Positions 3,183 through 23,219 of a stretch of DNA of 64,000 bases are shown one piece after another. Every line of letters starts with the position of its first letter. Positions within the stretch are counted from its first letter, which is position 1. Both the position numbers and the translations under genes were made by a program. A model generated the notes under the pieces. That model was given only the letters and a program-made list of their open reading frames with translations, made no database searches and was not told where the DNA came from. This DNA is from Gammaproteobacteria bacterium (GTDB lineage: Bacteria; Pseudomonadota; Gammaproteobacteria; G965277405): positions 2,048,001 through 2,112,000 of the forward strand of contig OZ255726.1 of assembly GCA_965277405.1 (NCBI GenBank), written 5' to 3'.

Positions 3183-3190
3183 GTTCTTTG

Positions 3191-5020: not shown

Positions 5021-5062
5021 TCGGATTATCATACCACAACATTCATTTTTTACACAAAAGAT

Positions 5063-8000
5063 ATGAAAAAAATACTTGGTATAGATGTAGGAAGCAATTC
5101 TATTGGTTGGGGCTTAATTACAGCAAGTGACAGTGGCTTGTGTAGCGATGTTGTAGCCTTAGGATCCCGTATATTCATGAAAGCTATTCAGGACGACAGT
5201 ACCAAACCTAAAAACGTCCAGCGCCGTACAAGTCGTTTGTTACGCAGGGTTTTAGAAAGGCGCGCTAGGCGCAAAAGAAATTTGGCAAACTATTTAATAT
5301 CGCAAAATTTACTCCCAGCTGCACTCAGCGACAATTTTCACCAAGAAGGCTTATTAAATAGTTTAGGAGACCCATATGAACTACGTGCTAAAGCCTTAGA
5401 CGACCAGCTTAAACCCTATGAATTAGGTCGTGTTTTGCTGCACTTTGTAGCGCGTAGAGGCTTTTTAAGTTCACGTAAAAGCTTACTCGGAGACTTGGTA
5501 GACGACCCTGACATGCAAGCTTATTTAAACGAAGTAGCAGAGGAAAGCGCCCAGGGTAACAGCCAAACAGAAAAAGAGGAAAAGCAGTTTTTACTAGAAA
5601 TAAGCATTTTACGCAACAAAATTATACTTTCTGGCAAGCGCAGCCTAGGTGAATATTTGTTTGCTTTAGTCAATAGTAACAAAAGAAACAGGAAGCATGC
5701 CTTTGAGATTATTCGTACTGATAGAGCCATGTATCATGAAGAGTTTACCCAAATATGGCAACAGCAAACAACCTTTTTTGCGCACTTACCCAACAGCTTT
5801 ATTGAAAAGGTTGAAAAAATTATTTTTTACCAAAGACCCCTTAAATTAAAAAAAAACCGCATAGGAAAATGCTCGTTAGAAAGGAATAAATACCGTGCAA
5901 AACAAGCCACTTTACAAGCGCAGCAGTTTCGATACTTACAAGACATTAACAACCTTATCATTTATCAAGGTAATGCTGCCGACCGCCCACTTACTCATGA
6001 GGAAAAAGAAAAACTTTATAAAATTTTAGAACAACAAAAAAAAATCACTTACGCCGTTATTAAAAAAAAATTAGGGTTACCTAGAACAATCACTTTTAAT
6101 CTGCAAGCAAGTAAGAAAGAACTTCAAGGCAATGAGACTGCTTGCAATATTCGCTCTGTTATCGGTGAAGTCTGGGACAATATGGAAGATTTAGAACAAG
6201 AAAAATTGGTGGAAGACTTGCTGACCATGAAGAAGAAGTCTGCGTTAAAAAGACGTCTGATAAACTACTGGGGGTTTAGCGTAGACGCAGCCATACAACT
6301 TTGTTTGCTCGAATTTACTGCAGGTCATAGTAACTTATCACTTAAAGCTCTTAATAAATTATTACCTCATCTATATGAAGGGAATATGTATAGCGATGCA
6401 AGAATAAAAGCTGATTATGAGGTTACCCAAGAGTCAAAAAACTTAGACCGTCTCGGCAGCCCGCCTGTAACTTGTAACCCCATTGTCAATAAAGGATTGC
6501 ACGAATTACGGCGCTTAGTTAACGCAATTATCGCCCAGTACGGCAAGCCTGATATTATTCGTGTGGAAATGGCTAGAGACTTAGAGCAAAATACTAAGCG
6601 CTACAAAGCAGCAGAAAAAACACGTAAGGCGAATGAAACACGTAATGAAAAAGCAGCAACGCAGTTTGCATCTTTAATGGGTCCGCACCATAGCAAAAAA
6701 CCCTCGCTAAATGACAAAATTAAATATCGACTATGGCAAGATCAAAACAAACTTTGCGCCTATAGTTGCCAAACCATTGCTGCTACGCAAGTATTTAGTC
6801 TAGATACCGAAATAGACCATATTTTGCCGCGGAGCAAATCCTTAGATAATTCTTATCCTAATAAAGTTATTTGTTTTAGTCAGGAAAATCAGAAAAAACA
6901 CGATACAACGCCCTTCATGGCTTGGGGAGGTGACACTGACAAGTGGCGCAATATGCTACAGGCAGCAAATACATGGAAGATTAAAAAGAAGCTTAGAGAC
7001 AATAAGCTACAGCGTTTTAAAATCACTGCAGAAGAGTTAAAGGAAATAGCACGTGGCGCTGTTACTACGCAGCTCAACGATACCCGCTATATTGCACGCG
7101 AAGCCTTAAGTTATCTAGCTACATTAGGTTGCGATACGCATGCTGTAAAAGGTCACACTACTGCATGGCTACGGGGTAGACTGGGCTTTAATTTCTTACT
7201 TAATGTTGATGATACAAAAAATCGTGAAGATCACCGGCATCATGCCGTTGATGCTGTCGTAATCGCTGCCACATCGCGCCAGCTATATCAAAAAATTGTC
7301 GATGCAATAAAACAACAACAACAACATGGTTACAAAGCACCATTGATATTAGATGACTATGCCCACATTCGCCAACGCTTGCTCGTGCTGTTACAACACG
7401 TTACTGTATCTTATATACCACAATACCAGCTAACAGGCGCGCTGCACGAAAGCAGAGGGCTTGGGTTTATCACTGTAAAGGAAGACAATACTGAAATTAC
7501 GGGAACAGTTAATAGAACGGCTGTAGATAAAAAATTGAATAGTAAGCGTGCTTTAAAAATTATTGATAAACAGGTGCGTGAACTAATTTTAGCACAGCTA
7601 ACAGCACATAATAACAATCCCAAAGAAGCATTTATAGACAATAACTACCCTTTGCACAAAGATGGTAAAACCCCCATTAAGCGGGTGCGTATATGGAAGA
7701 CAAAGATATCAACAGAAAAACTCCATGCTACCAAATTAGCCATACATGACCAAGCGGGCAAGGTATTCAAATGGTGTCTTTTTGGCAACACCCACCATGT
7801 AGAAGTCATTAAAGAAAAAGCAACGGGGAAAATTGCAAGTAAATTTATTACGATGTACGCAGCCAGTTGTCGTTTAAAGGGTATTGGGGTAGCGCAATCT
7901 GCTGCGGTGATAACCAATCATGGGCAAGAGTATGAATTTATTATGGCGCTGCATATCAACGACACGGTAAGTTTGCGCATCACAGGCAATGACGAACGCG

Positions 8001-8197
8001 TGTTGTATAGGGTGCAGAAGTTCAGTTTGGATACGAACACTCTTTTCTTGTGTTTAAACGTGGCGGCAACTTTACACCATAAAAATCAACAGCTTAGCAT
8101 GAACATCAACACCGCTAATTTTGAAAAATACCAACCTATGTTACATAAGGTCAATGCTATAGGTCAAGTTGTGCGTGTTATTGCCAGTTATCCTTAA
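5063..8197 (+). CDS. cas9: Type II-C CRISPR endonuclease Cas9 (1044 aa)
   Basis: RuvC-I LGIDVGSNSIGW, Arg-rich bridge helix, RuvC-II VEMARD, HNH EIDHILP..DNSYPNKV..EN, RuvC-III HHAVDA. Confidence 0.97.
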   Translation: MKKILGIDVGSNSIGWGLITASDSGLCSDVVALGSRIFMKAIQDDSTKPKNVQRRTSRLLRRVLERRARRKRNLANYLISQNLLPAALSDNFHQEGLLNSLGDPYELRAKALDDQLKPYELGRVLLHFVARRGFLSSRKSLLGDLVDDPDMQAYLNEVAEESAQGNSQTEKEEKQFLLEISILRNKIILSGKRSLGEYLFALVNSNKRNRKHAFEIIRTDRAMYHEEFTQIWQQQTTFFAHLPNSFIEKVEKIIFYQRPLKLKKNRIGKCSLERNKYRAKQATLQAQQFRYLQDINNLIIYQGNAADRPLTHEEKEKLYKILEQQKKITYAVIKKKLGLPRTITFNLQASKKELQGNETACNIRSVIGEVWDNMEDLEQEKLVEDLLTMKKKSALKRRLINYWGFSVDAAIQLCLLEFTAGHSNLSLKALNKLLPHLYEGNMYSDARIKADYEVTQESKNLDRLGSPPVTCNPIVNKGLHELRRLVNAIIAQYGKPDIIRVEMARDLEQNTKRYKAAEKTRKANETRNEKAATQFASLMGPHHSKKPSLNDKIKYRLWQDQNKLCAYSCQTIAATQVFSLDTEIDHILPRSKSLDNSYPNKVICFSQENQKKHDTTPFMAWGGDTDKWRNMLQAANTWKIKKKLRDNKLQRFKITAEELKEIARGAVTTQLNDTRYIAREALSYLATLGCDTHAVKGHTTAWLRGRLGFNFLLNVDDTKNREDHRHHAVDAVVIAATSRQLYQKIVDAIKQQQQHGYKAPLILDDYAHIRQRLLVLLQHVTVSYIPQYQLTGALHESRGLGFITVKEDNTEITGTVNRTAVDKKLNSKRALKIIDKQVRELILAQLTAHNNNPKEAFIDNNYPLHKDGKTPIKRVRIWKTKISTEKLHATKLAIHDQAGKVFKWCLFGNTHHVEVIKEKATGKIASKFITMYAASCRLKGIGVAQSAAVITNHGQEYEFIMALHINDTVSLRITGNDERVLYRVQKFSLDTNTLFLCLNVAATLHHKNQQLSMNINTANFEKYQPMLHKVNAIGQVVRVIASYP

Positions 8198-8221
8198 ATT
8201 TTGCTAGCTGTACAAAAAATA

Positions 8222-9115
8222 ATGATTAAACGCATTATTGATATTGGGCAAGCAAGTTACTTGCATATTCAGCATCAACAACTATGCATTGAACAAGCAG
8301 GTAAACAAGTAGGGCGTATTCCCATAGAAGATATAGCTATTATTATTATTCACGATACTGCTAGCTACTATACTCATGCCTTGTTTATCGAGCTATTAAG
8401 ACATAATGTTGCAGTAGTGTTTTGCGACCGCCATCATCTACCCTTGGGACAACTAGCCCCTATAGCATCTCATAGTTTGCATACCAAAATCATTCACGAG
8501 CAAATACAAGTTAAAAAATCCACTAAAAAACGCCTGTGGAAGCTGATAGTCCAAGCAAAAATTCGTGAACAAGCCACCACTTTGAGGTTGACAGGCAAGG
8601 ATGCACAAAAAATAAGCGCCCTTGTTGACCAAGTAAAAAGTGGAGATAGTGCTAATGTAGAAGCCAATGCTGCGCGTTGCTATTTTAATGAATTATTTGG
8701 CAACGCCTTTAGACGCGACAGGCAACAAGCTGGCATAAATGCTCTGTTAAATTATGGGTATAGTGTAGTGCGTGCAATGTTTGCGAGGGCTATTGTTGCC
8801 ACGGGCTTACACCCCACTTTTGGCATCCAGCATTCTAACCAATACAATCACCTATGTTTAGCAGATGACTTAATGGAGCCATTTCGCCCTTGGGTGGATG
8901 AAGCGGTGTATGCGCTGACACATAAAAACGAGGTTATATCCGTTGACAAAGCAAGCAAAACGACGGTACTTAATCTGTTGAGTAACAATGTAGTATGGAC
9001 GAAGAAACACCAACCTTTTATGGTTGTGAGCCATTATTTAGCGGCAAACCTCAAACAAGCTTTAGTAACGAACCAGCCTGTTTTTAGCATTCCACAAAGA
9101 GTTGACAAACAATGA
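8222..9115 (+). CDS. cas1: CRISPR-associated integrase Cas1 (type II)
   Basis: SGDSANVEA, NALLNYGY, GIQHSNQYN..LADDLMEPFRP. Confidence 0.96.
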   Translation: MIKRIIDIGQASYLHIQHQQLCIEQAGKQVGRIPIEDIAIIIIHDTASYYTHALFIELLRHNVAVVFCDRHHLPLGQLAPIASHSLHTKIIHEQIQVKKSTKKRLWKLIVQAKIREQATTLRLTGKDAQKISALVDQVKSGDSANVEANAARCYFNELFGNAFRRDRQQAGINALLNYGYSVVRAMFARAIVATGLHPTFGIQHSNQYNHLCLADDLMEPFRPWVDEAVYALTHKNEVISVDKASKTTVLNLLSNNVVWTKKHQPFMVVSHYLAANLKQALVTNQPVFSIPQRVDKQ

Positions 9116-9471
9116 GCAGCAGGGATTGTACTTACAATAAAGTTATATTTGGCGGACTTAAAACCATGTGGATAATTGTGCTATTTGACTTGCCTACAGT
9201 AAGTAAAACAGAACGCAGAGCCTATACTGTTTTTCGTAAGCATTTACTCAATGACGGTTTTAATATGATGCAGTTTTCCGTGTACATGCGTCATTGTGCT
9301 AGCGAAGCAAACGCGCAGGTGCACGAGACGCGCATACAAGCAGCCTTACCGAGCTTAGGAGAGGTAAGGGTCATAAAAATAACCGATAAGCAATTTGGTA
9401 AAATTCAAGTTTTTTATGGTAAAAAACGCAAAAAAACCGAAATTCCGCCATTACAAATGGATCTTTTTTAA
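9112..9471 (+). CDS. cas2: CRISPR-associated Cas2 (alternative start 9166)
   Basis: MWIIVLFDLP, GFNMMQFSVY, ITDKQF. Confidence 0.95.
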   Translation: MSSRDCTYNKVIFGGLKTMWIIVLFDLPTVSKTERRAYTVFRKHLLNDGFNMMQFSVYMRHCASEANAQVHETRIQAALPSLGEVRVIKITDKQFGKIQVFYGKKRKKTEIPPLQMDLF

Positions 9472-9521
9472 ATGCCACTTAGGCATACAACCCTTACCAA
9501 CCAAGTAGTTTCCCACTTTGT

Positions 9522-10800
9522 ACTTTAACCGACTACAGTTTAACCACAATTCACAACAATCCGCACGACCATCTGCGAGACAACCATACTTTAACCGACT
9601 ACAGTTTAACCACAATTCACAACTCTCATTGTTCAAACGGCAGGGCATTGTTAACTTTAACCGACTACAGTTTAACCACAATTCACAACAAAGAGAGTTA
9701 ATGAATAGCTACATGGAAGACTTTAACCGACTACAGTTTAACCACAATTCACAACCGGTCACGTTGTCGTGACGGCAATGTATTTACTTTAACCGACTAC
9801 AGTTTAACCACAATTCACAACGACGAATGATGATACTCGCTACTGTACCAACTTTAACCGACTACAGTTTAACCACAATTCACAACACCTAGGACTGTTG
9901 CGATTTAGGTAATCAACTTTAACCGACTACAGTTTAACCACAATTCACAACTGGTTTCGGCACGTTAAAAAAATAGCAGACACTTTAACCGACTACAGTT
10001 TAACCACAATTCACAACCGAAAGCTACGGACGACGAAATAAGCTTGGACTTTAACCGACTACAGTTTAACCACAATTCACAACACTCCGAATGCAATCAT
10101 CAATACCGCATTTACTTTAACCGACTACAGTTTAACCACAATTCACAACAGAAATCGGCTAAATCCGACTAAATCGTCTACTTTAACCGACTACAGTTTA
10201 ACCACAATTCACAACAACAATATGAGCGTGATAATTGCGTTTCAACTTTAACCGACTACAGTTTAACCATAATTCACAACAAAAGCTAAAGGGGATATCT
10301 GCTTTGAAGGACTTTAACCGACTACAGTTTAACCACAACAATGGCTGTGTTATTGAACCTGCGGCTATACTTTAACCGACTACAGTTTAACCACAATTCA
10401 CAACAACTGACCATAGCTTGTTACGATTTAGCAAACTTTAACCGACTACAGTTTAACCACAATTCACAACAATTTGACCGCTGTCATAAACTTTAGAATA
10501 ACATTAACCGACTACAGTTTAACCACAATTCACAACAATTTAACCGCTGTCATAAACTTTAGAATAACTTTAACCAACTACAGTTTAACCACAATTCACA
10601 ACAACCGACCATAGCTTGTTACGATTTAGCAAACTTTAACCGACTACAGTTTAACCACAATTCACAACAATTTAACCGCTGTCATAAACTTTAGAATAAT
10701 TTTAACCGACTACAGTTTAACCACAATTCACAACAAATACAAGTTGCCAAACTTACTGATGCAAACTTTAACCGACTACAGTTTAACCACAATTCACAAC
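9522..10800 (-). CRISPR. CRISPR array: 20 repeats (36 nt), 19 spacers (29-30 nt)
   Basis: Repeat ACTTTAACCGACTACAGTTTAACCACAATTCACAAC on the + strand; crRNA sense is the minus strand, inferred from tracrRNA complementarity; no csn2 or cas4, hence II-C. Confidence 0.98.
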
Positions 10801-11117: not shown

Positions 11118-11359
11118 TTGTAGGGTTATATTATACACTAGTCTTGACCACCCACGGGTGAGCAGATTGGTGTTATGCAGGATAAACGCGGTCAAAGTCC
11201 AGCAATCGACAGCAACACCCAAATTGACAAAACCAAGCCCTAAAATTAGAAATATCAGCCATTTAGTGGCAATTTATCATTCACTAGCTAGTATTGACCC
11301 TGACGATATGACTTTTTTTTATGTCATTCTTATACGTTAAAGCGATTGTCGGGGGGTCA

Positions 11360-12829
11360 ATGCGTCGCACTATATGTTTCGTCCATAAGGGGCAGATAAG
11401 AGAGTTGGTACCGAGAGAACCAACACAAACTGTCCTGAATTTTCTGCGGTATGAAGACGCCTTGACTGGTACGAAGGAAGGCTGCGCTGAAGGAGATTGT
11501 GGTGCATGCACCGTTGTCCTTGGCGACCTTGAGCTAGACGGCTCAATTCGCTATCTGGCCGTCAATTCCTGCATTCAGTTTTTACCAATGCTGGATGGTC
11601 GAGAGTTGATTACCGCAGAAGACCTGAAATTAGCAGACGGCTCTTTGCATCCAATCCAACAAGCAATGGTTGACCACAACGCCACCCAATGCGGCTTCTG
11701 CACCCCAGGATTTGTCATGTCTCTGTTTGCTGAAAAGCACGGCAGCAATTCTGCTGATACTTGGGACGTCAATAATGTACTTGCGGGGAATCTGTGCCGC
11801 TGTACTGGGTATGGGACCATTATTGCGGCTGCAAAGAGCGCAGCTGCAAGCCACGCTGACGATCAATTTGATGGGACAATGGAGACCAGAGCCGGCATGC
11901 TGAAATCTCTTCAGCAAAATCCCCCCCTTGCTCTGCAGGCAAAAGGTAACCGCTATTTCGCTCCCACATCAATAGCTGAGCTTGCCGATTTGCTGGCAAC
12001 CTATCCGCAGGCCATCCTCCTTGCTGGTGCGACGGATATCGGGCTGTGGGTGACTAAGCAGCATCGTCAACTCGATACACTCATTTATCTCGGGCGGATA
12101 CAAACACTCAAAGCAATGGTACTGGATGAAAACTCGATCTCGATTGGCGCGGGCGTCACGTATGCAGAAGCTTGGAAAACACTGGGGTCAGAGTATGCGG
12201 ATCTGCATGAACTAATCCGCCGCATTGGCTCTACACAGATCCGCAATTCCGCAACCATTTGCGGTAATATTGCCAACGGATCGCCGATCGGAGATATGCC
12301 GCCAGCGCTGATCGCGCTTGACGCCACGGTGACCCTAACGAGCAAACGAGGTAGTCGTAGCATCGCGCTTGAAAAATTCTTCATCGGCTATAATACGCAA
12401 GATTTGCAGCCGGGGGAGTTTGTAGAAAAAGTATCTATACCAAGACCATCGGCTACTAAGCAGTTCAGGGCCTACAAAATATCTAAAAGGTTTGACCAGG
12501 ATATTTCAGCTTTGTGTGCCGCTTTTAATCTCACATTGGCAGGGATAACGGTCAAAGACATCCGCATATGTTATGGGGGCATGGCTGGTACGCCCTTGCG
12601 CGCTCAACAAACCGAAGCTGCCGTCATCGGCAAAGACTGGGTGCGCGCAACCATTGATACGGCCTTGCAGGCTATGAGCAAAGATTATCAACCGCTCAGC
12701 GATATGCGGGCGAGTGATCGGTACCGGATGGCGGTGGCACAAAATCTGTTGTTGAAATTTTTTATTGAGACAACAGATCGGCACACGGCAACCCGTCTGC
12801 TCGGCGATATGGAGCGCGCCCATGCGTAA
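11360..12829 (+). CDS. xdhA: Xanthine dehydrogenase small (Fe-S/FAD) subunit
   Basis: GTKEGCAEGDCGAC, QCGFCTPG, GNLCRCTGY, KISKRFDQDIS. Confidence 0.95.
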   Translation: MRRTICFVHKGQIRELVPREPTQTVLNFLRYEDALTGTKEGCAEGDCGACTVVLGDLELDGSIRYLAVNSCIQFLPMLDGRELITAEDLKLADGSLHPIQQAMVDHNATQCGFCTPGFVMSLFAEKHGSNSADTWDVNNVLAGNLCRCTGYGTIIAAAKSAAASHADDQFDGTMETRAGMLKSLQQNPPLALQAKGNRYFAPTSIAELADLLATYPQAILLAGATDIGLWVTKQHRQLDTLIYLGRIQTLKAMVLDENSISIGAGVTYAEAWKTLGSEYADLHELIRRIGSTQIRNSATICGNIANGSPIGDMPPALIALDATVTLTSKRGSRSIALEKFFIGYNTQDLQPGEFVEKVSIPRPSATKQFRAYKISKRFDQDISALCAAFNLTLAGITVKDIRICYGGMAGTPLRAQQTEAAVIGKDWVRATIDTALQAMSKDYQPLSDMRASDRYRMAVAQNLLLKFFIETTDRHTATRLLGDMERAHA

Positions 12830-15173
12830 TTCTGTTCCTAGCAAAACCGAAATTCGCGGTAAGATTGGCAGGCAGCTGATGCACGACAGCGCTGTCAAGC
12901 AGGTTGCAGGCGCAGCGCACTATATTGATGATGTTGCGGAACCTAAGGATCTGCTGCATCTGTATGTCGCCAAGAGCACGATGGCCCACGCAACAATCAG
13001 TAAACTCGACGTGTCGCAAGCCAGCGCTGCCGCAGGTGTCGCCGTTGTCTTGACTGCAGCAGATGTGCCTGGCGTCAACGATGCCTCTCCCGTGGCAGGG
13101 GACGACCCAGTTTTTGTAGAAGACCTAGTTGAATATGTCGGACAGTCGTTGTTTGTCGTTGCCGCCGATAGCCTGGAGCAGGCGCGAGCGGCCGCGGCTC
13201 TTGCTGTTGTGGAATATGAACAACTCCCTACTGTGCTGACAGTTGAGCAAGCACTCGCAGCGGGTTCGTTCGTGCTGCCAAGCCGTCACCTTGTCAAGGG
13301 AGACCCTGCATCAGCCCTCAAAACGGCCGTAAATAGATTGCAAGGTCGCGTTGAAATTGGTGGTCAGGACCATTTTTATCTTGAAGGTCATATCTCCGTG
13401 GCAACCCCGCGCGAGGATGGGGATGTCCACGTTCATTGTTCGACGCAACACCCGACTGAAGTTCAGCATAATGTCGCAAAGTTTCTTGATGTGGCGGACC
13501 ATTCGGTCTGCGTTGAAAACAGGCGAATGGGCGGTGGGTTTGGCGGCAAGGAAACACAAGGGGCGTGGTTTGCCGCGATGGCAGCATTAGTGGCAACAAC
13601 AACCGGGCGCCCAGCAAAACTAAGGGTGGACCGGGATGATGATATGATTATGACTGGGAAACGCCATGACTTTGTGATCGAGTATGATGTCGGGTTTGAC
13701 GATGACGGCAAGATTGACGGCGTGGAATTTATGTTTGCATCGCGCTGCGGCCGCTCTGCGGACCTATCTGCTGCGATCAACGACCGAGCCATCTTCCATG
13801 CGGATAACTGCTATTTTATGGAAAATATCTCGATTATTTCGCACCGTTGCAAGACCCATACGGTCTCCAATACCGCCTTCAGGGGTTTTGGCGGCCCGCA
13901 GGGGATGATCGGCGTTGAACGGATGATTGACGAGATTGCACACGCGCTTGGCAAAGATCCTCTCGACATCCGCAAAATCAACCTATACGGCAAAACGGAG
14001 CGCAATGTCACTCCGTATCATATGGAGATTAAAGATAATATTATAGCGGAAATTATCGCCGATCTTGAGAAAAAATCAGCCTATGCGGCGCGCGTCAAGG
14101 CTGTCCGTGAGTTTAATGCCAGCAGCGCGTATCTGAAAAAGGGCATTGCGTTGACACCTGTCAAATTCGGTATATCTTTTACCACGACATTCCTCAACCA
14201 AGCTGGCGCACTCATTCATGTTTACACTGATGGCAGCGTCATGCTCAACCATGGCGGCACCGAGATGGGTCAGGGTCTGTTCATCAAGGTGGCCCAGGTT
14301 GTTGCCGAAGAATTGCAGATTGATATCGAGAGGGTAAAAATCACAGCAACGACAACCGACAAGGTGCCAAACACGTCAGCAACAGCCGCGTCCTCTGGAT
14401 CTGATATGAACGGCAAGGCGGCACAAATCGCCGCCAGAACAATTAAAGACCGATTAACCAAGTTTGCAGCAGAGCATTATCAGGTTGCTGCAAACGCTAT
14501 TCGCTTTCTGCCCAATCGCATCCAAATTGGCAATAAGGTTGTTACATTTGCCGCACTGGTCGAGCAAGCCTACCTAAACCGAATTTCTCTTTCCGCGACT
14601 GGATATTATAAAACACCGAAAATCCACTATGACGCGGAAAACTATTCTGGACGCCCGTTTTACTATTTCGCATACGGAGCCGCTGTCGCGGAAGCCATGA
14701 TTGATACGTTGACTGGTGAGAGCAAAATCATGCGGGTTGATATCATCCATGATACTGGCAAAAGCCTTAATCCAAGCATTGATCTTGGTCAGATTGAAGG
14801 GGGCTTCATCCAGGGAATGGGATGGCTGACAACCGAGGAACTGGTGTTTGACGAGCGGGGTAACCTGATGACGCATGCCCCGTCTACATATAAGATCCCA
14901 ACGTGCAGCGACCGTCCCGCTATTTTCAATATGGAAATCTATGCTGGTGGCGAGAATGTGGAAAACAGCATTCACAAGTCAAAAGCAGTTGGCGAACCGC
15001 CGTTAATGCTGGCGATTTCTGTCTTTAATGCGCTAACCGACGCCGTCAGAAGCGTTGCTGACTACCGCGAATTTCCTGCACTGGATGCCGCTGCGACACC
15101 AGAGCGAATTCTGCACGCCGTGCAGGATTTGCAGGAAAGGATGCGCAATAGCCAAAGGACTCCACCCGCATGA
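12822..15173 (+). CDS. xdhB: Xanthine dehydrogenase molybdopterin subunit
   Basis: GGQDHFYLE, RMGGGFGGKE, AFRGFGGPQG, SKAVGEPP. Confidence 0.96.
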   Translation: MRNSVPSKTEIRGKIGRQLMHDSAVKQVAGAAHYIDDVAEPKDLLHLYVAKSTMAHATISKLDVSQASAAAGVAVVLTAADVPGVNDASPVAGDDPVFVEDLVEYVGQSLFVVAADSLEQARAAAALAVVEYEQLPTVLTVEQALAAGSFVLPSRHLVKGDPASALKTAVNRLQGRVEIGGQDHFYLEGHISVATPREDGDVHVHCSTQHPTEVQHNVAKFLDVADHSVCVENRRMGGGFGGKETQGAWFAAMAALVATTTGRPAKLRVDRDDDMIMTGKRHDFVIEYDVGFDDDGKIDGVEFMFASRCGRSADLSAAINDRAIFHADNCYFMENISIISHRCKTHTVSNTAFRGFGGPQGMIGVERMIDEIAHALGKDPLDIRKINLYGKTERNVTPYHMEIKDNIIAEIIADLEKKSAYAARVKAVREFNASSAYLKKGIALTPVKFGISFTTTFLNQAGALIHVYTDGSVMLNHGGTEMGQGLFIKVAQVVAEELQIDIERVKITATTTDKVPNTSATAASSGSDMNGKAAQIAARTIKDRLTKFAAEHYQVAANAIRFLPNRIQIGNKVVTFAALVEQAYLNRISLSATGYYKTPKIHYDAENYSGRPFYYFAYGAAVAEAMIDTLTGESKIMRVDIIHDTGKSLNPSIDLGQIEGGFIQGMGWLTTEELVFDERGNLMTHAPSTYKIPTCSDRPAIFNMEIYAGGENVENSIHKSKAVGEPPLMLAISVFNALTDAVRSVADYREFPALDAAATPERILHAVQDLQERMRNSQRTPPA

Positions 15174-16270
15174 CGGATTGGGCAGATATCCTCAGCAAAC
15201 ACATGGAAAACGGCTGCCACTCCATCTTGTTGACGATTGCCGCCGTCCGCGGTTCTACCCCACGGGAAACTGGGACGCGGATGTTGGTCACGATGCAGCA
15301 GACGTTCGGAACAATCGGCGGCGGAATGCTCGAATATCGGGCAATTCAACACGCAACTGGGCTGTTGCAGTCTGCTACGACTACCCCAGCAATTTTAAAA
15401 ATCCTGCTCGGTCCAGAGCAGGGGCAATGTTGCGGTGGGCTGGTTGAACTGCTCGTCGCGCCTCTTGGTCAGCAAGATCTTGTGTGGATGAAAAATATTG
15501 TGGCGGCGAACAAACACTCACGGTGTGCTGTTCTGCATACCCGCTGGCAGGGCGGACAGATCCAGCGCCAGGTATTCTGTAACCTTGATGACATTCCTGC
15601 CAATGAAAATTTGCTCAGACAACTATCGAGGATGGTTAGCAGCGATGGCACACCCCTTGTTGCAACCACCCCTGCGGGCGCAGATTTTACAGTTATAGAA
15701 GCCTTGAGCACTAACAAATTTCACCTTGTGCTGTTTGGTGCAGGTCATGTCGGCAAAGCCATCGTCCAGACTCTGGCAGGCTATCCCTGCTCGATCGCAT
15801 GGGTCGATGAGCGCGCCGATATGTTCCCAGCAACCCTCCCTGCGATTGTAGAAAAATGGGTTACACCCTATCCTGCACGGTTGGTTGGTGAAACCCCACC
15901 AAATAGTTATTTCCTCGTGATGACCCATAGCCATCAACTGGATATGGAGATATGTGCGGCCATATTGAAGCGCGGTGCTTTTGGATATCTTGGGTTGATT
16001 GGCTCGAAAACGAAGCGGAATAAATTTGTAAAACGGTTAAAATTCAGAGGGTTTTCTTCAACGCGTATCAGTAAACTCGTTTGCCCAATCGGGGTTGCTG
16101 CCATCAGCGGCAAGCATCCAAATGAAATTGCCATCAGTGTCGCAGCGCAGTTGCTGCAGCACCAGGAAATGCGTCAGTTGGCATCGAGAGATCTCGCAGT
16201 GTTTACCAGAGTTGAGGAAAAACGTAAGAAACTGACTCAGGTTACTGCAAAGTTTGAGACTAGTTTATAG
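15170..16270 (+). CDS. xdhC: Xanthine dehydrogenase accessory protein
   Basis: GSTPRETG, GTIGGG, LFGAGHVG, MTHSH, GLIGSKTK. Confidence 0.92.
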   Translation: MTDWADILSKHMENGCHSILLTIAAVRGSTPRETGTRMLVTMQQTFGTIGGGMLEYRAIQHATGLLQSATTTPAILKILLGPEQGQCCGGLVELLVAPLGQQDLVWMKNIVAANKHSRCAVLHTRWQGGQIQRQVFCNLDDIPANENLLRQLSRMVSSDGTPLVATTPAGADFTVIEALSTNKFHLVLFGAGHVGKAIVQTLAGYPCSIAWVDERADMFPATLPAIVEKWVTPYPARLVGETPPNSYFLVMTHSHQLDMEICAAILKRGAFGYLGLIGSKTKRNKFVKRLKFRGFSSTRISKLVCPIGVAAISGKHPNEIAISVAAQLLQHQEMRQLASRDLAVFTRVEEKRKKLTQVTAKFETSL

Positions 16271-16312: not shown

Positions 16313-17857
16313 ATGGAGACACAAGTTGCGCCGACACCCCGCCTAGAACTGAAGGGTATTACCAAAGCCTATCCTGGCGTGTTGGCTAATGATAGCATCG
16401 ACCTGAAAATTTTCCCTGGAGAAATCCATGCTCTTTTTGGCGAAAATGGAGCCGGAAAAAGTACGCTCGTCAAAATCATATATGGGGTTTTGCAAGCCGA
16501 TTCTGGCATAATGGAATGGGATGGTAGGCCATTGCAAATTGCCAATCCCCACGCTGCGAGGAAAATCGGCATTGGTATGATTTTTCAGCATTTCTCACTC
16601 TTTGAGGCAATGACTGTTGTCGAGAATATCACGCTGGGGCTGCCATACCGCGAGAATATGGCTGAACTCGCGCAACGCATCCGCGAAATTTCAGAAAATT
16701 ACGGTCTCCTCCTCAACCCGTACCGATATGTCCATACGCTCTCTGTAGGCGAAAAACAGCGGATAGAAATTGTCCGTTGTCTGCTGCAAAACCCTAAATT
16801 GCTCATCATGGATGAGCCAACATCAGTTCTCACGCCGCTAGAAGCTGACAAGATGTTTACAACGCTACGCTGTCTGGCAACTGAAGGGGTTGCCATACTC
16901 TATATCAGCCATAAACTTTACGAAATACAGACCCTTTGCCATAAGGCAACAATCCTGCGGGGCGGCAAGTACATTGCAGAATGTGACCCAAGCGTAGAGA
17001 CCGCTAAAAACCTCGCCGAGATGATGACTGGCACCAACTTTACTGCAGCAAAGCACAGCGATAATAGCACGCGTGATCTGGTCTGCCTCAAGGTCAACAA
17101 CCTCTCTTTGGATAGTACTGGTCAGTTTGGCACCGACCTCAATTTGATCAATTTCGAAGTAAGAAGCGGAGAAATTTTCGGAATTGCCGGGGTTGCTGGC
17201 AATGGGCAAGTTGAGCTGCTAGCAGCACTTAGCGGCGAAGTAACGTGCAAAAATGCGCACGACATTCTGCTTGAACAACAACCGATTGCCCATACAGGTC
17301 CCAATCAACGCAGGGAACTTGGTGTTGCATTTGTCCCCGAAGATCGGTTGGAGCATGGGTCTGTGGCTGACATGAGTTTGGTGGATAACGCCTTCCTCAG
17401 CGCCTATGGGCAGAAAAAACTTGTATGCATTGGTTGGATTAAAAGGCGCAAGACGATGAAATATGCAGATGAGATTGTCGCCAAGTTCGATGTACGAACC
17501 ACAGGGATTACCCACATGGCCAGCAGCCTGTCAGGCGGAAATCTGCAAAAATTTATCGTCGGCCGCGAAATGCTGAAAAAACCGAAATTGATCATTATTG
17601 CGCATCCTACGTGGGGGGTTGATGCATGTGCCGCCGCGGCTATCCAGCAGGCAATAATCGACCTCGCCGCAACAGGTACAGCTGTTTTGGTGGTTAGTCA
17701 GGACCTAGACGAACTATTTGCCATCAGTCATCGCATCGCGGTCATAGCAGCGGGCCGACTGTCCATCAGCCGCGCTGTTGATGAAATAGCAGTCGAGGAT
17801 ATCGGCGAGTTGATGGGCGGCGCCGCGGCAAAAATGGAATGTAACAATGTTGCTTAA
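16313..17857 (+). CDS. Purine/nucleoside ABC transporter ATP-binding protein
   Basis: GENGAGKST, two ABC domains, LSGGNLQK. Confidence 0.9.
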   Translation: METQVAPTPRLELKGITKAYPGVLANDSIDLKIFPGEIHALFGENGAGKSTLVKIIYGVLQADSGIMEWDGRPLQIANPHAARKIGIGMIFQHFSLFEAMTVVENITLGLPYRENMAELAQRIREISENYGLLLNPYRYVHTLSVGEKQRIEIVRCLLQNPKLLIMDEPTSVLTPLEADKMFTTLRCLATEGVAILYISHKLYEIQTLCHKATILRGGKYIAECDPSVETAKNLAEMMTGTNFTAAKHSDNSTRDLVCLKVNNLSLDSTGQFGTDLNLINFEVRSGEIFGIAGVAGNGQVELLAALSGEVTCKNAHDILLEQQPIAHTGPNQRRELGVAFVPEDRLEHGSVADMSLVDNAFLSAYGQKKLVCIGWIKRRKTMKYADEIVAKFDVRTTGITHMASSLSGGNLQKFIVGREMLKKPKLIIIAHPTWGVDACAAAAIQQAIIDLAATGTAVLVVSQDLDELFAISHRIAVIAAGRLSISRAVDEIAVEDIGELMGGAAAKMECNNVA

Positions 17858-18926
17858 GATCGAAAAACGCCTTGAGCCTTCGCGGTCAATGGTGTATGTA
17901 ACTCCAGTTCTTGCCATATTTTTCACTATTGTCACGGCGATGGTGCTCTTCACGTTTATGGGAGTCGACCCTATTGATGCTCTCATAAATTTTTTTATTG
18001 TCCCGATCAACAACGAGTATGGTGTCACCGAGGTTCTCGTTAAAGCAACACCGCTAATCCTTTGTGCCATCGGTCTTTCTGTGGGATTTCGGGCGAATAT
18101 CTGGAATATTGGTGCAGAAGGGCAGCTAACGCTCGGTGCTATTTTTGGCGGGGGTGTTTTTGTCTATTTTTACGATGTTGACAGCGGGTTTCTGCTGGTG
18201 GTCATGATTATCATGGGTGCCGTCGGCGGTGCACTCTGGGCTGCCATTCCGGCTTTCCTTAAAACCCGGTTCAATGCCAATGAAATCCTCACCAGTCTGA
18301 TGCTGGTGTATGTTGCTCTGCTGATCTTGAGTTTTCTGGTCCACGGACCGTGGAGCGATCCAGACGGGTATAATTACCCTGAATCAAGAATGTTCAGCGC
18401 CAGCGCGACCATGCCGATTCTGTGGCAGGGAACGCGCTTGCATCTGGGAACGATCCTAGCATTATTCGCCGTCTTCACCACTTGGATAATGCTGGCGAAA
18501 ACGCTGATTGGTTTTCAGATCAAAGTCATCGGCTCAAGCGCAAAAGCATGTAAGTATGCTGGTTTCAGCCAAAAAAAAATTACTTGGTTCTGCCTGCTTT
18601 TTGGTGGAGGTATGGCTGGAATCGCGGGGATTTCCGAAGTCGCAGGTCCAGTTGGTCAACTGGTGCCCATCATCTCCCCAGGGTATGGATTTACAGCCAT
18701 TATTGTTGCATTTCTCGGGCGGCTTCACCCAGTCGGTATTATTTTCGCTGGGCTACTAATGGCGCTGACCTATCTTGGCGGTGAAACGGCGCAGCTCAAT
18801 CTAGGACTGCCAACTGCCGTGACTGGTGTCTTTCAGGGAATGGTTCTCTTCTACCTGCTGGGCTGCGATGTGTTGGTCAATTACCGTTTTCGTCCGCTTG
18901 GTTTTGCACGGGCTGTTCATGAGTGA
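17847..18926 (+). CDS. Purine/nucleoside ABC permease
   Basis: WNIGAEGQ, ANEILTSLM, multiple TM segments. Confidence 0.9.
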   Translation: MLLKIEKRLEPSRSMVYVTPVLAIFFTIVTAMVLFTFMGVDPIDALINFFIVPINNEYGVTEVLVKATPLILCAIGLSVGFRANIWNIGAEGQLTLGAIFGGGVFVYFYDVDSGFLLVVMIIMGAVGGALWAAIPAFLKTRFNANEILTSLMLVYVALLILSFLVHGPWSDPDGYNYPESRMFSASATMPILWQGTRLHLGTILALFAVFTTWIMLAKTLIGFQIKVIGSSAKACKYAGFSQKKITWFCLLFGGGMAGIAGISEVAGPVGQLVPIISPGYGFTAIIVAFLGRLHPVGIIFAGLLMALTYLGGETAQLNLGLPTAVTGVFQGMVLFYLLGCDVLVNYRFRPLGFARAVHE

Positions 18927-19848
18927 TTTTAGCTTGTTAGTCCCAGTAATTCTAACTGTTATCACCGCGGCAACACCGCTGGTTTTGGCCAGCATTGGCG
19001 AATTGGTGACAGAAAAATCTGGCGTTCTTAACCTAGGCATAGAAGGCATGATGATTGTCGGAGCTGTAGCCGCATTTGTGACTGCAAAAGTGACCAGCAG
19101 CTATATTCTTGCTGTCCTTGTCGCCGCGCTGGCGGGTACTTGCATGGCGTTTATATTTGGTATCCTCACCCTTTCCTTGATGGCTAATCAGGTAGTAACT
19201 GGGCTGGCGCTGACGTTGTTCGGGACAGGTCTATCCTCGCTGGTTGGGCAGGACTTTGTCGGGGAGCCAATCGCTGCGATTGTCAAACTCGATATCAATG
19301 GCTTAACGACTCTGCCGATTGTCGGCCCCATCCTGTTTGGTCAGGATGCCTTGGTGTATTTGTCATTTGTGATGGTGGTGCTGGTTATCTGGTTCCTTAA
19401 TACAACCAAAGCAGGCCTGATTCTTCGCGCTGTGGGTGATTCGCATGATGCTGCACATTTAATCGGATATTCGGTTATCGGCATCCGTTATCTTGCCGTT
19501 ATGTTTGGTGGGGCCATGGCTGGAATTGGCGGCGCCTACCTCTCCTTGGCCTATACCCCGATGTGGGCGGAAAACATGACAGCAGGTCGCGGTTGGATTG
19601 CTCTCGCCTTGATTGTCTTTGCAACTTGGAAACCTGGGTTGGTGCTGTTCGGTGCTTATATGTTTGGTGGTATTACCCTGTTGCAATTGCATGCGCAGGC
19701 CGCAGGATTTGGCTTGCCGTCGCAAATGTTATCGATGTTGCCTTATCTGGCGACAGTGATTATCCTAGTTTTGATTTCTAAGGACGAGTCACGTATCCGC
19801 AGACACGCTCCAGCTTGTATTGGGAAGATATTTCACCCTGCAGCGTAA
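18919..19848 (+). CDS. Purine/nucleoside ABC permease
   Basis: EKSGVLNLGIEG, AGRGWIALA. Confidence 0.9.
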   Translation: MSDFSLLVPVILTVITAATPLVLASIGELVTEKSGVLNLGIEGMMIVGAVAAFVTAKVTSSYILAVLVAALAGTCMAFIFGILTLSLMANQVVTGLALTLFGTGLSSLVGQDFVGEPIAAIVKLDINGLTTLPIVGPILFGQDALVYLSFVMVVLVIWFLNTTKAGLILRAVGDSHDAAHLIGYSVIGIRYLAVMFGGAMAGIGGAYLSLAYTPMWAENMTAGRGWIALALIVFATWKPGLVLFGAYMFGGITLLQLHAQAAGFGLPSQMLSMLPYLATVIILVLISKDESRIRRHAPACIGKIFHPAA

Positions 19849-19925
19849 TGCCCAAATTTAGGGAATTATATACCATTTTAGCCAAGCACCACTTAACATA
19901 TAGTTATTAAATGGTTTAAATACTA

Positions 19926-19953
19926 TTGACAAATAAATTTATTCCCCTACAAT
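19926..19953 (+). promoter_or_regulatory. sigma70-like promoter inside the element
   Basis: TTGACA-16 nt-TACAAT upstream of the transposase start. Confidence 0.65.
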
Positions 19954-19976
19954 TCTAGCCATAGGAAGGGGGTGTC

Positions 19977-20612
19977 ATGAACAAGCACAACAAACCTGAA
20001 ATTATGAGCGCGTGGGACTTTATGGCGAGGTTCCCAACAGACGAACTGGCACGCGACCATATCGAACGCATGCGTTGGGGCAATGAACCTTATTGTCCAC
20101 ACTGCTGGAGCATATCGGTCAGTCGAATTAAGAACGAAAAACCCCAGCCGTTTCGCTGCAAGGATTGCCGAAAACATTTTTCTGTCACGACGGGTACAGT
20201 TTTCCATTCAACGAACCTATCACCGCGTAAGTGTCTTTATGCAATCTATCTCATGGCTATTGCTAAAAAGTCGATTTCAAGCTGCCAGATGGCGCGGGAG
20301 CTTGGTTGCACACAAAAGACAGCATGGTATCTCGCACAACGCATTCGGGAAACCTGGCTGAATAAGTCCAGCACTGGCGATCTGATGACCGGCGAAATAG
20401 AAATAGATGAAACCTATATCGACGGCATCGAAAAGAATAAGCACGCCAATAAAAAACTTAGGGCCGGTCGTGGGCCGGTCGGAAAACAAGCTGTTATCGG
20501 GGTGCGTGAGCGTAAATCCGGTCGTATTACGGCACGTCCGATTGCCCACATCAACCAAACCATACGTAACGCCGACGGTGTTCTTGGGTACAAGAACCTG
20601 ACGGTTAATTGA
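19977..20612 (+). pseudogene. IS1595-family transposase with internal deletion (211 aa)
   Basis: CPHC..CKDC zinc ribbon, HTH and EIDETY present; the later TD and H-x-N/E catalytic segments are missing. Confidence 0.8.
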
Positions 20613-20623
20613 AAGGATAAACA

Positions 20624-21379
20624 ATGCCGCGCAAAGCCGAACAGCTTATTGAACCCATTGATACGACAATGGACACGCTGACAGCAACTGTCTTTTCAAA
20701 CCAGAGAACTGTGCAGGCCCCGCCGGTTTCTTTACCCAAAGCTTTAACGCCGAACAGCCGCATCAAGATGGACGGGATTACGTTTCTGTCCCTATTGTCG
20801 GAGGCGGTAATCCCAGTCGCGTTTTTCGATCCGCAATATCGTGGCGTTCTCGAAAAGCTATCTTATGGGAACGAGGGGAAGGGGCGCGGAAAACGACGCT
20901 GCGCCTTGGAACAAATGCCCGAGGATGTAATCGCTCAATTCGTGCGCGGTATTGATCGCACCCTGATTCCATCTGGGCATTTGTTTTTATGGGTGGATAA
21001 GTTTCACCTCTGCCAAGGTATTCATGCGTGGCTGGACGGAACCTCGCTTGATATCGTTGATCTGGTTACTTGGGATAAGGGAACCTTTGGTATGGGTTAT
21101 CGGACACGCCGCCGCGCCGAGTACTGCATCATCCTTCAAAAACAGCCGCGCAAGGCAAAAGGTGTTTGGACAATCCATAATATCCCAGATGTGTACCGCG
21201 AAAAGGCCGGACGGAAAGAACACCCGCATATCAAACCTATAGATTTACAAGGCGAACTTATGGCCGCAGTGAGCCGCGAAGGTGATTTCGTGATTGACCC
21301 AGCCGCAGGATCATTTTCGGTTATGCAAGCCACGCTAAATTACCGCCGCACTTTCCTTGGCTGTGATTTGAACGGATAA
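20624..21379 (+). CDS. N4/N6 DNA methyltransferase (beta-like motif order)
   Basis: FFDPQY (motif IV) precedes HPHIKP and VIDPAAGS (motif I). Confidence 0.88.
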   Translation: MPRKAEQLIEPIDTTMDTLTATVFSNQRTVQAPPVSLPKALTPNSRIKMDGITFLSLLSEAVIPVAFFDPQYRGVLEKLSYGNEGKGRGKRRCALEQMPEDVIAQFVRGIDRTLIPSGHLFLWVDKFHLCQGIHAWLDGTSLDIVDLVTWDKGTFGMGYRTRRRAEYCIILQKQPRKAKGVWTIHNIPDVYREKAGRKEHPHIKPIDLQGELMAAVSREGDFVIDPAAGSFSVMQATLNYRRTFLGCDLNG

Positions 21380-21384
21380 CGATC

Positions 21385-22056
21385 ATGGCCCGCATTCGGA
21401 ATGCCCGTCCAAAGAATGTTTCTGGCTCTTACGAGCGGATATTCGACAATGCCGAACTCGGCGCACTCATTAGTAAAGTTCAATCCGCCGTCATCACATC
21501 GGGAACGGAGTTAGAGAAAAGGATCTCTGATATGGTCACCAATATAGACTGTCTGGATTCCTTTCTCAAACAAGAAATTATGCCGGATGGTGTGTGGCTC
21601 GCACGCAAGCGGCAAATTAAACGGAGCGATACCCTAGACTTTGCGGGCGCAGAGCCGGATTTCATGATTTTCAAACGCCGACAAGGTGTCCAGTCCTGCC
21701 ATATCGTTGAGCTAAAAGACGGACACGTATTTGATACCAAGAAAGCCAGTGCGGAACGTCAAGCTATGCATAATTTTATCTCGCACAATGCCCAACACAT
21801 CCAATATCGATTTCAAGCACATTTTTGTGCGTTCAATCAGGATGATCAGAATATGATATGGGTAGGTTTCAAGAAACGAATAGTTTTAAACGAAACAATG
21901 ACAGGGCGCAAGTTCTGCGAGCTTTTAGAGCTAGATTATGACGCTATAATCGAGGCGAGGAAGGCTGACGGACCTGATAATGTCAATTTCTTCCTGTCAG
22001 AACTGGTCAAAATAGAGGGCATCCGTCCGCATCTGTTGGAATTGCTCAATGGCTAA
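21385..22056 (+). CDS. Putative type II restriction endonuclease (PD-(D/E)xK)
   Basis: EPDFMIF...IVELKDG; adjacent to the MTase; stop codon lies within the right TIR. Confidence 0.75.
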   Translation: MARIRNARPKNVSGSYERIFDNAELGALISKVQSAVITSGTELEKRISDMVTNIDCLDSFLKQEIMPDGVWLARKRQIKRSDTLDFAGAEPDFMIFKRRQGVQSCHIVELKDGHVFDTKKASAERQAMHNFISHNAQHIQYRFQAHFCAFNQDDQNMIWVGFKKRIVLNETMTGRKFCELLELDYDAIIEARKADGPDNVNFFLSELVKIEGIRPHLLELLNG

Positions 22057-22136
22057 AATGGTATATAGTTCCCCAAATTTATAATAGTTTTTAACAAAGA
22101 GAGAATGAAATGAAATTTTTAACACAGGAGAATGAA

Positions 22137-23219
22137 ATGAAATTTAAGTCGTTGGTATCCCTTGGTCGCGCATTAGCCGTCGTCGCTGCAGTGCTTGCAG
22201 TTGGCACTGTATCTGCCGCAGACAAGGTCGGGTTTGTCTACGTTGGCCCAGTGGGGGATTATGGGTGGTCATACCGCCATGACATAGGCCGTCAGTCTGT
22301 AGCAAAGGCTTTCGGCGATAAAGTCAAAACAACATTCGTCGAAGACGTCAAGGATGGTGCAGATGCAGAACGCGTCATCCGCCAGATGGCTGCACATGGT
22401 CATAAACTTATCTTCGTAACGTCATTTGGTTTCATGAACCCGATGATGAAAGTTGCCAAACTATTCCCGCAGGTAAAATTCGAGCATGTAACAGGCTATA
22501 AGCGCGCCAATAATGTTAGCACTTATTCTGGGCGTAAGTATGAAGGGCGATATGTAGTCGGAAAAATTGCCGGGATGATGACTAAATCAAACATCATCGG
22601 CTATGTCGCAGCTTTCCCGATCCCAGAAGTTATTCGCGGCATCAACGCAGTTGCGCTTGCCGCTAGCAGCGTCAATCCAGACATCCAAGTTAAAGTTATT
22701 TTGGTCAATTCGTGGTATGACCCAGGTAAAGAAGGGGATGCTGCTAAAGCCCTCATTGACCAAGGCGCAGATATCATTATGCAGCATACCGATAGCCCGG
22801 TTGCCTTGCAGGTTGCGCAAAGCCGCGGCGTTTGGGGGGTTGGGCAGTCTTCAGATATGAAAGTTTTTGCACCAGAATGGCAACTGACGGCGATCATCGA
22901 CAACTGGGACGCATATTATATCGAGCGCACCCAAGCAGCCCTCGACGGTTCGTGGAAATCCCAAGATGTATGGGGTGGTTTGCAATCCAAAATGATCGAA
23001 CTTGCAAAATACAATGACGCCATTCCGGCTGATGTTGTCAACATCGCCGAAGCAACAAAAGCGGCGATTATCGACGGCTCTTTGAAACCTTTTGCTGGCC
23101 CGTTTAACAAACAAGATGGTACGGAAGCCGTGGCGGCTGGTGAAGAACTGGACGATGACGCTCTGCTTGGCATGGACTGGTATGTAGAAGGTGTTCAAGG
23201 AAAATTACCGAATAGCTGA
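22137..23219 (+). CDS. BMP-family ABC substrate-binding protein (purine/nucleoside)
   Basis: VGFVYVGPVGDYGWSYRH, TSFGFM, SWYDPGKE, QHTDSP. Confidence 0.92.
   Translation: MKFKSLVSLGRALAVVAAVLAVGTVSAADKVGFVYVGPVGDYGWSYRHDIGRQSVAKAFGDKVKTTFVEDVKDGADAERVIRQMAAHGHKLIFVTSFGFMNPMMKVAKLFPQVKFEHVTGYKRANNVSTYSGRKYEGRYVVGKIAGMMTKSNIIGYVAAFPIPEVIRGINAVALAASSVNPDIQVKVILVNSWYDPGKEGDAAKALIDQGADIIMQHTDSPVALQVAQSRGVWGVGQSSDMKVFAPEWQLTAIIDNWDAYYIERTQAALDGSWKSQDVWGGLQSKMIELAKYNDAIPADVVNIAEATKAAIIDGSLKPFAGPFNKQDGTEAVAAGEELDDDALLGMDWYVEGVQGKLPNS

Follow-up and report, generated by a model that had tools for sequence, protein, structure and literature searches.

A probable IS1595-family transporter element with a truncated transposase and a predicted type II restriction-modification operon as cargo

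In the 64,000-nucleotide stretch of DNA analysed here (the window; positions 2,048,001 to 2,112,000 of contig OZ255726.1, assembly GCA_965277405.1 of a Gammaproteobacteria bacterium), an ATP-binding cassette (ABC) transporter operon is interrupted by a foreign segment of 2.2 kb that lies in the same orientation. How did this DNA come to separate the genes of one transporter, what does it carry, and can it still move? Very probably, positions 19861-22073 are a transporter insertion sequence (tIS) of the IS1595 family with a complete type II restriction-modification (R-M) operon as cargo, derived from a full-length ancestor whose transposase has been partly deleted, after insertion at this site or already in the donor. 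An initial annotation of the locus had described a non-autonomous IS1595 derivative with R-M cargo inserted in an ABC operon, and both the anatomy of the element and its relatives agree with this description.

The element proper has a length of 2,213 bp and the layout promoter, transposase, methyltransferase and nuclease between two 24-bp repeats. Its parts are the following:

19853-19860: left copy of the 8-bp target-site duplication, CAAATTTA, 5 bp past the permease stop codon (19846-19848), read directly.
19861-19884, plus strand: left terminal inverted repeat, 24 bp, 0 mismatches, with TAGCCA at its inner end (19879-19884).
19926-19953, plus strand: sigma-70-like promoter, TTGACA-16 nt-TACAAT, matching the consensus at 11 of 12 positions.
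19956-19962, plus strand: TAGCCAT motif directly 3' of the -10 box, candidate operator for the DNA-binding domain of the transposase.
19977-20612, plus strand: truncated IS1595-family transposase, 211 amino acids (aa), assigned by profile matches, protein and DNA alignments and a structure model.
20624-21379, plus strand: beta-class N6/N4 DNA methyltransferase, 251 aa, assigned by Pfam, PADLOC and sequence motifs.
21385-22056, plus strand: type II restriction endonuclease of the PD-(D/E)xK class, 223 aa, assigned by PADLOC, its motif and a fold model.
22050-22073, minus strand: right terminal inverted repeat, 24 bp, 1 mismatch to the left one (23/24).
22074-22081: right copy of the target-site duplication, CAAATTTA, identical to the left copy, read directly.

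Short terminal inverted repeats and a target duplication of 8 bp are the values of the IS1595 family. The window element has both, just as the initial annotation had read them. The repeat 24-mer finds no further match in the window at up to 3 mismatches, and none of 100 shuffled sequences gave any match to it; its outer 13 bases are also found in the repeats of relatives. The methyltransferase and nuclease genes sit between the transposase gene and the right repeat, as expected for a tIS, and the nuclease stop codon (22054-22056) falls inside that repeat, a detail that had been noted correctly. Likewise, the promoter deserves the term near-consensus that it had been given. It is the only plus-strand promoter-like site that a scan of 19700-22300 returned, although promoter-like sites are not above chance in this region (5 found against 4.2 expected in shuffles). 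Because the three open reading frames (ORFs) are separated by gaps of 11 and 5 bp and a single plus-strand promoter was found, they most likely form a single operon, as far as the nucleotide sequence allows this to be predicted.

The family assignment comes from the first gene. Its product (ORF1) has an N-terminal zinc ribbon followed by an ISXO2-like DDE domain, the arrangement of IS1595 transposases: it matches Zn_ribbon_IS1595 (PF12760; E 4e-12, 46.3 bits, cut-off 25.4), positions 3-60 only of the 153 positions of DDE_Tnp_IS1595 (PF12762, ISXO2-like; 32.9 bits, cut-off 27), and positions 2-116 of 215 of the NCBIfam model transpos_IS1595 (NF033547; 76.9 bits, cut-off 75). The closest relatives are IS1595 transposases of 311 aa with ≈72-78% BLASTP identity (74-83% in alignment A1). 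Relative to these proteins one block of 100 residues is gone from ORF1 and the last 22 residues are back in frame. The earlier description of a transposase that retains its zinc ribbon, helix-turn-helix and first catalytic Asp and has lost roughly a third of its length in frame is thereby made exact, at 100 of 311 residues. The protein alignment places the junction near 20543/20544. An alignment of the DNA to relatives lacks 300 bases in ORF1; at ≈70% identity such an alignment misplaces the gap, and only the total of 300 bases is reliable. In an alignment of 58 sequences ORF1 retains the four zinc-ribbon cysteines (C40, C43, C61 and C64) and the helix-turn-helix region, and D144, the first Asp, is present. 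Two stretches that hardly vary among these 58 aligned relatives, the T-D and HTNGIESFW columns, fall into the deleted block; going by the family motif, we take them to contain the remaining Asp and Glu of the DDE triad. Since the deletion removed the part of the transposase with these two residues, the window copy cannot transpose by itself. Its ends are intact and its transposase is defective, as would be expected of a non-autonomous derivative that may be moved in trans; the 64-kb window contains no helper copy.

The second and third genes encode the cargo. Both ORFs are full length when compared with hundreds of homologues, and their intactness, which had been proposed for the methyltransferase as well as for the nuclease, is confirmed by their conserved motifs and by PADLOC. 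The methyltransferase matches Pfam N6_N4_Mtase (PF01555, E 2e-10) and PADLOC MTase_II (E 8e-82), its sequence matches in the PDB are N4/N6 methyltransferases, and 5,181 homologues at E ≤0.001 were found in a large protein set. It has both the catalytic motif IV (DPQY, residue 69; present in 118 of 120 listed homologues) and the S-adenosylmethionine-binding motif I (DPAAGS, residue 225; 117 of 120) of a methyltransferase of a type II R-M system. The Asp-Pro-x-Tyr form of motif IV presumably favours methylation of adenine-N6 over that of cytosine-N4.

Beside it, 5 bp downstream, lies the separate endonuclease gene of a type II system. Nuclease homology of this ORF, on which the initial annotation had made its reading depend, is present: the protein matches positions 1-221 of the 227-position PADLOC profile REase_II (E 7e-41), and the large protein set holds 469 homologues at E ≤0.001, the best of which, apart from itself, is 79% identical. 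D92, E109 and K111 (PD..ExK) are conserved to at least 90% among 84 diverse family members, and PD..E[LIV]K occurs in all of 120 close homologues, the window nuclease included. A model of the protein reaches a mean predicted local distance difference test score (pLDDT) of 95.9, and its top fold matches in the PDB are the type II enzymes EcoO109I, Nt.BspD6I, FokI, BstEII and MunI, so that the fold is recognised, with weak scores. EcoO109I is the best of these matches (probability 0.99, E 3.5e-3) and has the PD..ExK motif in common with the window nuclease; it differs from it by an identity of only 13% and a TM-score of 0.49, and no common specificity can be inferred. The nuclease sequence itself matched PDB chains at chance level only (E 0.93), and phage records gave no match to the protein. 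Scattered weak matches to Pfam families of the PD-(D/E)xK type (NERD, UL24, TnsA_N, PDDEXK_9, Hjc) occur among the 84 family members, in 2-4 members each. A HinfI-type identity, a lead from a language model, was dropped since PF09520 is not among the 25 most frequent of the 72 Pfam families matched by these members. Five Campylobacter plasmids carry nuclease homologues of 35% identity, each adjoining a DNA methyltransferase and annotated as 'restriction endonuclease' in three cases and as 'hypothetical protein' in two. Palindrome avoidance in the window yielded no specific candidate for the recognition site: GGCC, CCGG and GATC occur less often than expected, and base composition would predict more GANTC, CTNAG and TCNGA than are present; none of these points to the R-M system of the element.

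Relatives of the element were collected by scanning species-representative genomes with a 31-row nuclease alignment; the loci described here are among the best 80 matches. The scan yielded at least 76 loci in 59 genome records, all but one of which are titled as metagenome-assembled. By title the records belong to seven phyla: 43 to Pseudomonadota, 10 to Poribacteria, 2 to Spirochaetota and one each to Latescibacterota, Actinomycetota, Bdellovibrionota and Chloroflexota. The best match is 77% identical to the window nuclease; the genome of the window is not in the set. Relatives with the gene order and spacing of the window element exist. A first hint that the three genes travel as a set came from the homologues of the single proteins, since several nuclease, methylase and 311-aa transposase matches lie on contigs of equal length (for example 5714, 4489, 53907, 4468087, 234136 and 7593). 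According to tblastn, a transposase or a remnant of it lies directly upstream of the cargo in 19 of 58 loci outside one multi-copy Ruegeria genome and in each of the 18 loci inside it; altogether 20 of the 59 records have such a trace. Both 24-bp repeats could be found in eight of the non-Ruegeria loci (L003, L005, L008, L024, L031, L032, L036 and L061), with 8-bp duplications that have no mismatch in six loci, one in L036 and two in L005. Siblings with a full transposase, for which a search had been suggested, are present in the collection: L005, L008, L024 and L033 have open frames of 311 aa with the complete DDE triad that is missing from the window ORF1. Other transposases of the family are decayed, by one in-frame stop at residue 127 in L003, by frameshifts in L031 and L059 and by an interruption in L032. 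L061 is a cassette of 1,485 bp that consists of repeat, methylase, nuclease and repeat; it has no transposase and is flanked by the perfect duplication AAAATTTA. L036 (4715-5686) is a derivative of 972 bp in which both repeats enclose a 48-residue transposase stub and a full-length nuclease, and no methyltransferase; the two copies of its duplication differ (CAAATTGT and CACATTGT). Without the methylase, such a nuclease should kill the cell, except where another enzyme protects the site or the nuclease is inactive.

The Ruegeria sp. record contains at least 18 loci (L010-L023, L051, L053, L055, L065) of a 2.75-kb version with transposase, methylase and nuclease. Thirteen have the standard length of 2,747-2,748 bp, and ten of the 18 are flanked by perfect 8-bp duplications at different sites. 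The flanks of seven loci match poorly, at 2-5 of 8 bases, which suggests possible recombination between copies, and several copies are interrupted by further insertions of 1.2-2.3 kb. The transposase of this version is 46% identical to the 311-aa type, whereas its methylase and nuclease are 77% and 71% identical to those of the window; its repeat has the outer 13 bases, GGGAATTATATAC, in common with the window type. The 341-aa transposase frame was open in 15 of 16 copies checked, the sixteenth having been read at a one-base offset. The burst also means many copies of a restriction enzyme gene in this one genome. In the Ruegeria type a TGGCTANAAT motif is found at 5620-5629 (minus strand), ≈40 bp before the end of the nuclease gene, and the real right repeat follows ≈300 bp further on; the motif may mark where a right end of the window type once lay.

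Three of the relatives show an additional peculiarity of their insertion sites. In L003 (2661-5931), L005 and L008 (about 2923-6194) the whole element lies inside a second, orphan methyltransferase gene, which in L003 and L008 is 67-74% identical to the window methylase. Excision of the element together with one copy of the duplication restores open frames of 262, 245 and 292 aa in L003, L005 and L008, respectively. The insertion points are not the same, being near residue 172 in L003 and near residue 90 in L005 and L008; the split gene of L003 is located among housekeeping genes (PGK, hexapeptide transferase, PhyH). In L076 (5713-6195) and L071 (5676-5807) a methylase fragment is found directly 3' of the nuclease. 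That a methylase paralogue of 750 bp was hit at two or more positions seems more than coincidence.

From these data we propose the following history. A full-length ancestor of ≈2.5 kb would have inserted by DDE transposition into the 8-bp sequence CAAATTTA and duplicated it; insertion and site duplication are borne out by the anatomy of the element and by its relatives. A 300-bp in-frame deletion, which may have happened later or already in the donor, would have removed the catalytic part of the transposase. Methyltransferase and nuclease would most likely be co-transcribed with the transposase from its promoter, and the pair would provide a restriction barrier and make loss of the element costly, an effect shown for some type II systems (PMC2853133, introduction).

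Several points weigh against this reading. The fold match of the nuclease is weak, with no PDB match at E ≤0.001 and a best query TM-score of 0.49, and the protein has no Pfam family, nothing being found even at E up to 1; the R-M activity of the cargo is a prediction from sequence. The term 'clean insertion' draws on a single observation, the target duplication. The junction of the deletion cannot be placed at the level of bases, the nearest full-length relatives having ≈70% DNA identity, and the in-frame state of the deletion says nothing by itself on selection, because it has a one-in-three chance. At 39 of the 58 non-Ruegeria loci the methylase-nuclease pair, or the nuclease alone, has no transposase trace, and for this reason the pair must be said to exist also outside recognisable elements. 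In a tree built from joined methylase and nuclease sequences (43 rows; three loci with stops left out, one Ruegeria copy included) the window stands beside L003. Transposase-bearing and transposase-free loci interleave in it, at least nine changes being needed, and all eight Poribacteria loci that were placed form one transposase-free clade. As the tree is unrooted and was built by a quick method, it cannot tell loss of the transposase from gain.

Whether the element is still mobile bears on the first alternative. The initial annotation had called it locked in place; this goes beyond the data, given intact ends and a search for a helper that was limited to 64 kb. A full-length IS1595 transposase elsewhere in the genome may move the non-autonomous copy in trans, which is conceivable because both ends are intact. 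We regard such movement as possible, if somewhat doubtful. The repeats match at 23 of 24 positions, genomes with many copies do occur, and the transposase-free cassette L061 with its perfect duplication is compatible with transposition in trans, although L061 could equally have lost its transposase after inserting. Against movement in trans stands the window itself, within whose 64 kb no second copy of transposase, methylase, nuclease or repeat was detected.

The next alternative concerns the 211-aa remnant. Insertion sequence IS1 has a natural N-terminal DNA-binding product of its transposase gene, InsA, whose role as a repressor has been shown experimentally and which is made by design through frameshift control. 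Like InsA, the 211-aa protein of the window is encoded by the 5' end of a transposase gene and has a zinc finger and a helix-turn-helix and no catalytic domain; unlike InsA, it is the product of a deletion in one copy, with a putative function. It could have been kept as an InsA-like DNA-binding regulator at TAGCCA sites that represses the operon or controls the R-M genes and inhibits transposition, a role that we consider rather unlikely. A relation of IS1 to IS1595 is stated by the title of the 2009 IS1595 paper (Siguier et al.) that is cited in PMC2853133 and PMC5704250.

The arguments for a regulator come mainly from the TAGCCA motif. Nine left ends, aligned at a mean column identity of 64%, all share without change the TAGCCA that closes the repeat on its inner side and the TAGCCAT that follows directly on the -10 box; the -35 and -10 positions of the promoter are conserved in 9/9 as well. 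The right repeat has the reverse complement of TAGCCA on its inner side, and there this motif also supplies the nuclease stop codon. The window has four ATTNTAGCCA sites (0.81 expected over its whole length), all but one of them in the element, but one of 100 shuffles also reached four. The fourth copy, ATTCTAGCCA, lies outside the element at 41369-41378 and is probably a chance match, because 0.81 matches are expected in the window. The presence of TAGCCA in both repeats and at the promoter makes autoregulation by the predicted DNA binding plausible: if the transposase domain bound a site at the start of transcription, the operon would control itself, and this domain is precisely the part left in the 211-aa protein. 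The conservation of the motif appears to support the idea of a regulator more than the in-frame deletion does.

The remnant protein itself can be read in both directions. Its zinc-ribbon cysteines and helix-turn-helix region are intact, and in the AlphaFold model residues 6-131 are predicted mostly with confidence, while residues 132-211 mostly have a pLDDT below 50. ORF1 departs from the consensus at only 3 of 70 highly conserved columns, and 21 of 57 full-length relatives depart at three or more; in a test for relaxed constraint its number of changes thus lies inside the spread of the full-length relatives. One substitution, G44W, falls beside a zinc-binding cysteine in a column with at least 90% conservation and counts against a regulator. 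The in-frame state, which would favour a regulator, has the prior of one in three mentioned above. No other genome among 120 listed relatives of ORF1 has the same 211-aa form, and the transposases of other relatives carry frameshifts, stops and insertions, as plain decay predicts. The remnant is either inert or represses through the TAGCCA sites of the ends and the promoter, repression being the less likely of the two. A simpler explanation fits as well, namely a dead remnant, which may be tolerated since its open frame spares the methyltransferase a polar effect.

A wider version of the same idea would make the family self-stabilising. The DNA-binding half of the transposase would recognise the TAGCCA sites of both ends and of the single promoter and be both a transposition factor and the controller of the R-M genes, so that copies with dead catalysis, such as that of the window, would stay regulated and addictive; spread across phyla, bursts to 18 or more loci and the knocking-out of orphan methylases that would neutralise addiction would belong to this strategy. 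We hold this scheme to be quite unlikely.

It is very unlikely, in our view, that the cargo is no longer a working R-M system, for example with an inactive nuclease and a methyltransferase that serves as an orphan-like epigenetic enzyme. Methylase homologues far exceed nuclease homologues (5,181 against 469 at E ≤0.001), relatives have orphan methylase paralogues, and the nuclease of L036 without a methylase hints that the enzyme can be tolerated. However, both ORFs of the window are full length with all conserved motifs, including PD..E[LIV]K, which none of the 120 close homologues lacks, and D92, E109 and K111 in the 84-member set.

That the R-M genes are long resident in the chromosome, with an unrelated dead insertion sequence (the IS1595 fragment and the repeats) as their neighbour, is scarcely credible: the 39 of 58 non-Ruegeria loci at which the nuclease, mostly with the methylase, has no transposase trace and the transposase-free clade of eight Poribacteria loci would fit it, but in the window repeats and duplication enclose all three genes, the nuclease stop lies within the right repeat, the host operon continues on either side, and the same enclosure recurs in eight other loci and in the 18 loci of one genome.

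We therefore return to the reading of the element as an IS1595-family tIS and to the question of how far it resembles known systems. A tIS is defined, in 10.1101/2021.05.26.445724, as a single transposase with passenger genes between short inverted repeats and is said there to be restricted to the IS1595 and IS66 families. MTnSag1 and tISCpe8 are named as IS1595 examples with 25-bp repeats in PMC5704250, and tISCpe8 carries lincomycin resistance according to a title cited there. As in these elements, one IS1595-type DDE transposase and passengers lie between short inverted repeats in the window element; MTnSag1 and tISCpe8 are mobilisable, whereas the window element has an R-M pair as cargo and a transposase without its catalytic core. 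Type II R-M units with inverted repeats and 8-bp duplications and without a transposase were described in 2010 by Furuta, Abe and Kobayashi (PMC2853133); their paper raises the possibility of insertion by a transposase acting in trans and cites the 2009 IS1595 paper for R-M systems or solitary methylase genes flanked by insertion sequences. The window element resembles these units in its R-M genes flanked by inverted repeats and 8-bp duplications, and the L061 cassette is their closest analogue. The 2010 units have no transposase and no identified family, in contrast to the internal transposase or remnant, the autonomous relatives and the 18-locus genome of the window family.

No IS1595 element with a complete R-M pair came up in a literature search; ISfinder, REBASE and the 2009 IS1595 paper were not covered by this search, and an IS1595 entry with the same cargo may already exist in ISfinder or in that paper. 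The search of plasmids with the DNA of the whole element (distant mode) gave no match.

The picture of the family, with autonomous, decayed, cassette and burst forms in seven phyla by title, is more interesting than the window element itself. R-M systems have long been argued to be mobile and selfish, but few compact units are known whose mechanism of transposition is clear. Where the 2010 survey (PMC2853133) had repeat-flanked systems with 8-bp duplications and no transposase, the family adds autonomous elements, decayed copies such as that of the window, a transposase-free cassette and an 18-locus genome, all in one lineage. It offers a concrete means by which restriction systems could spread among uncultured marine bacteria of these phyla and, at 2.2-2.75 kb, a small natural system in which the mutual regulation of a transposon and an addictive cargo can be studied.

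The element is surrounded by the genes of a BMP-family transporter, which follow xdhABC:

11321-16270: xdhABC (xdhA, xdhB, xdhC), directly upstream of the ABC ATPase gene.
16313-17857, plus strand: ABC ATPase of the transporter, upstream of the insertion.
17847-18926 and 18826-19848, plus strand: BPD_transp_2 permeases of the transporter, upstream of the insertion.
22110-23219, plus strand: Bmp/PnrA-like substrate-binding protein (Pfam Bmp, E 2e-50), downstream of the insertion.

The insertion point lies between the second permease gene and the binding-protein gene, in a spacer that otherwise has ≈70 bp. The label 'purine' that the initial annotation had given to this operon suits the context, with xdhABC directly upstream, but the substrate is not established; NCBIfam matches to a putative B6 transporter are far below cut-off. 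A scan found one terminator-like site, a weak one inside the methyltransferase gene. Because element and operon have the same orientation and only this weak site was found, read-through from the element into the binding-protein gene seems plausible.

A 27-bp tandem duplication (22088-22145; 2.1 copies, 93% matches) begins 7 bp past the right target duplication. It spans the ribosome-binding site and the start codon of the binding-protein gene, with in-frame ATGs at 22110 and 22137. Scans of the window for tRNA genes and Rfam families found nothing. The host gained a probable restriction barrier with the element, and a CRISPR-Cas9 locus is located 10 kb upstream. This compact type II locus (window 5063-10792) encodes a Cas9 of 1,044 aa with HNH, Cas9 alpha-helical lobe and RuvC_III domains and Cas1 (8201-9115); the CRISPR array, at ≈9514-10792, has ≈20 repeats with a period of 65-66 bp, and some adjoining units look duplicated.

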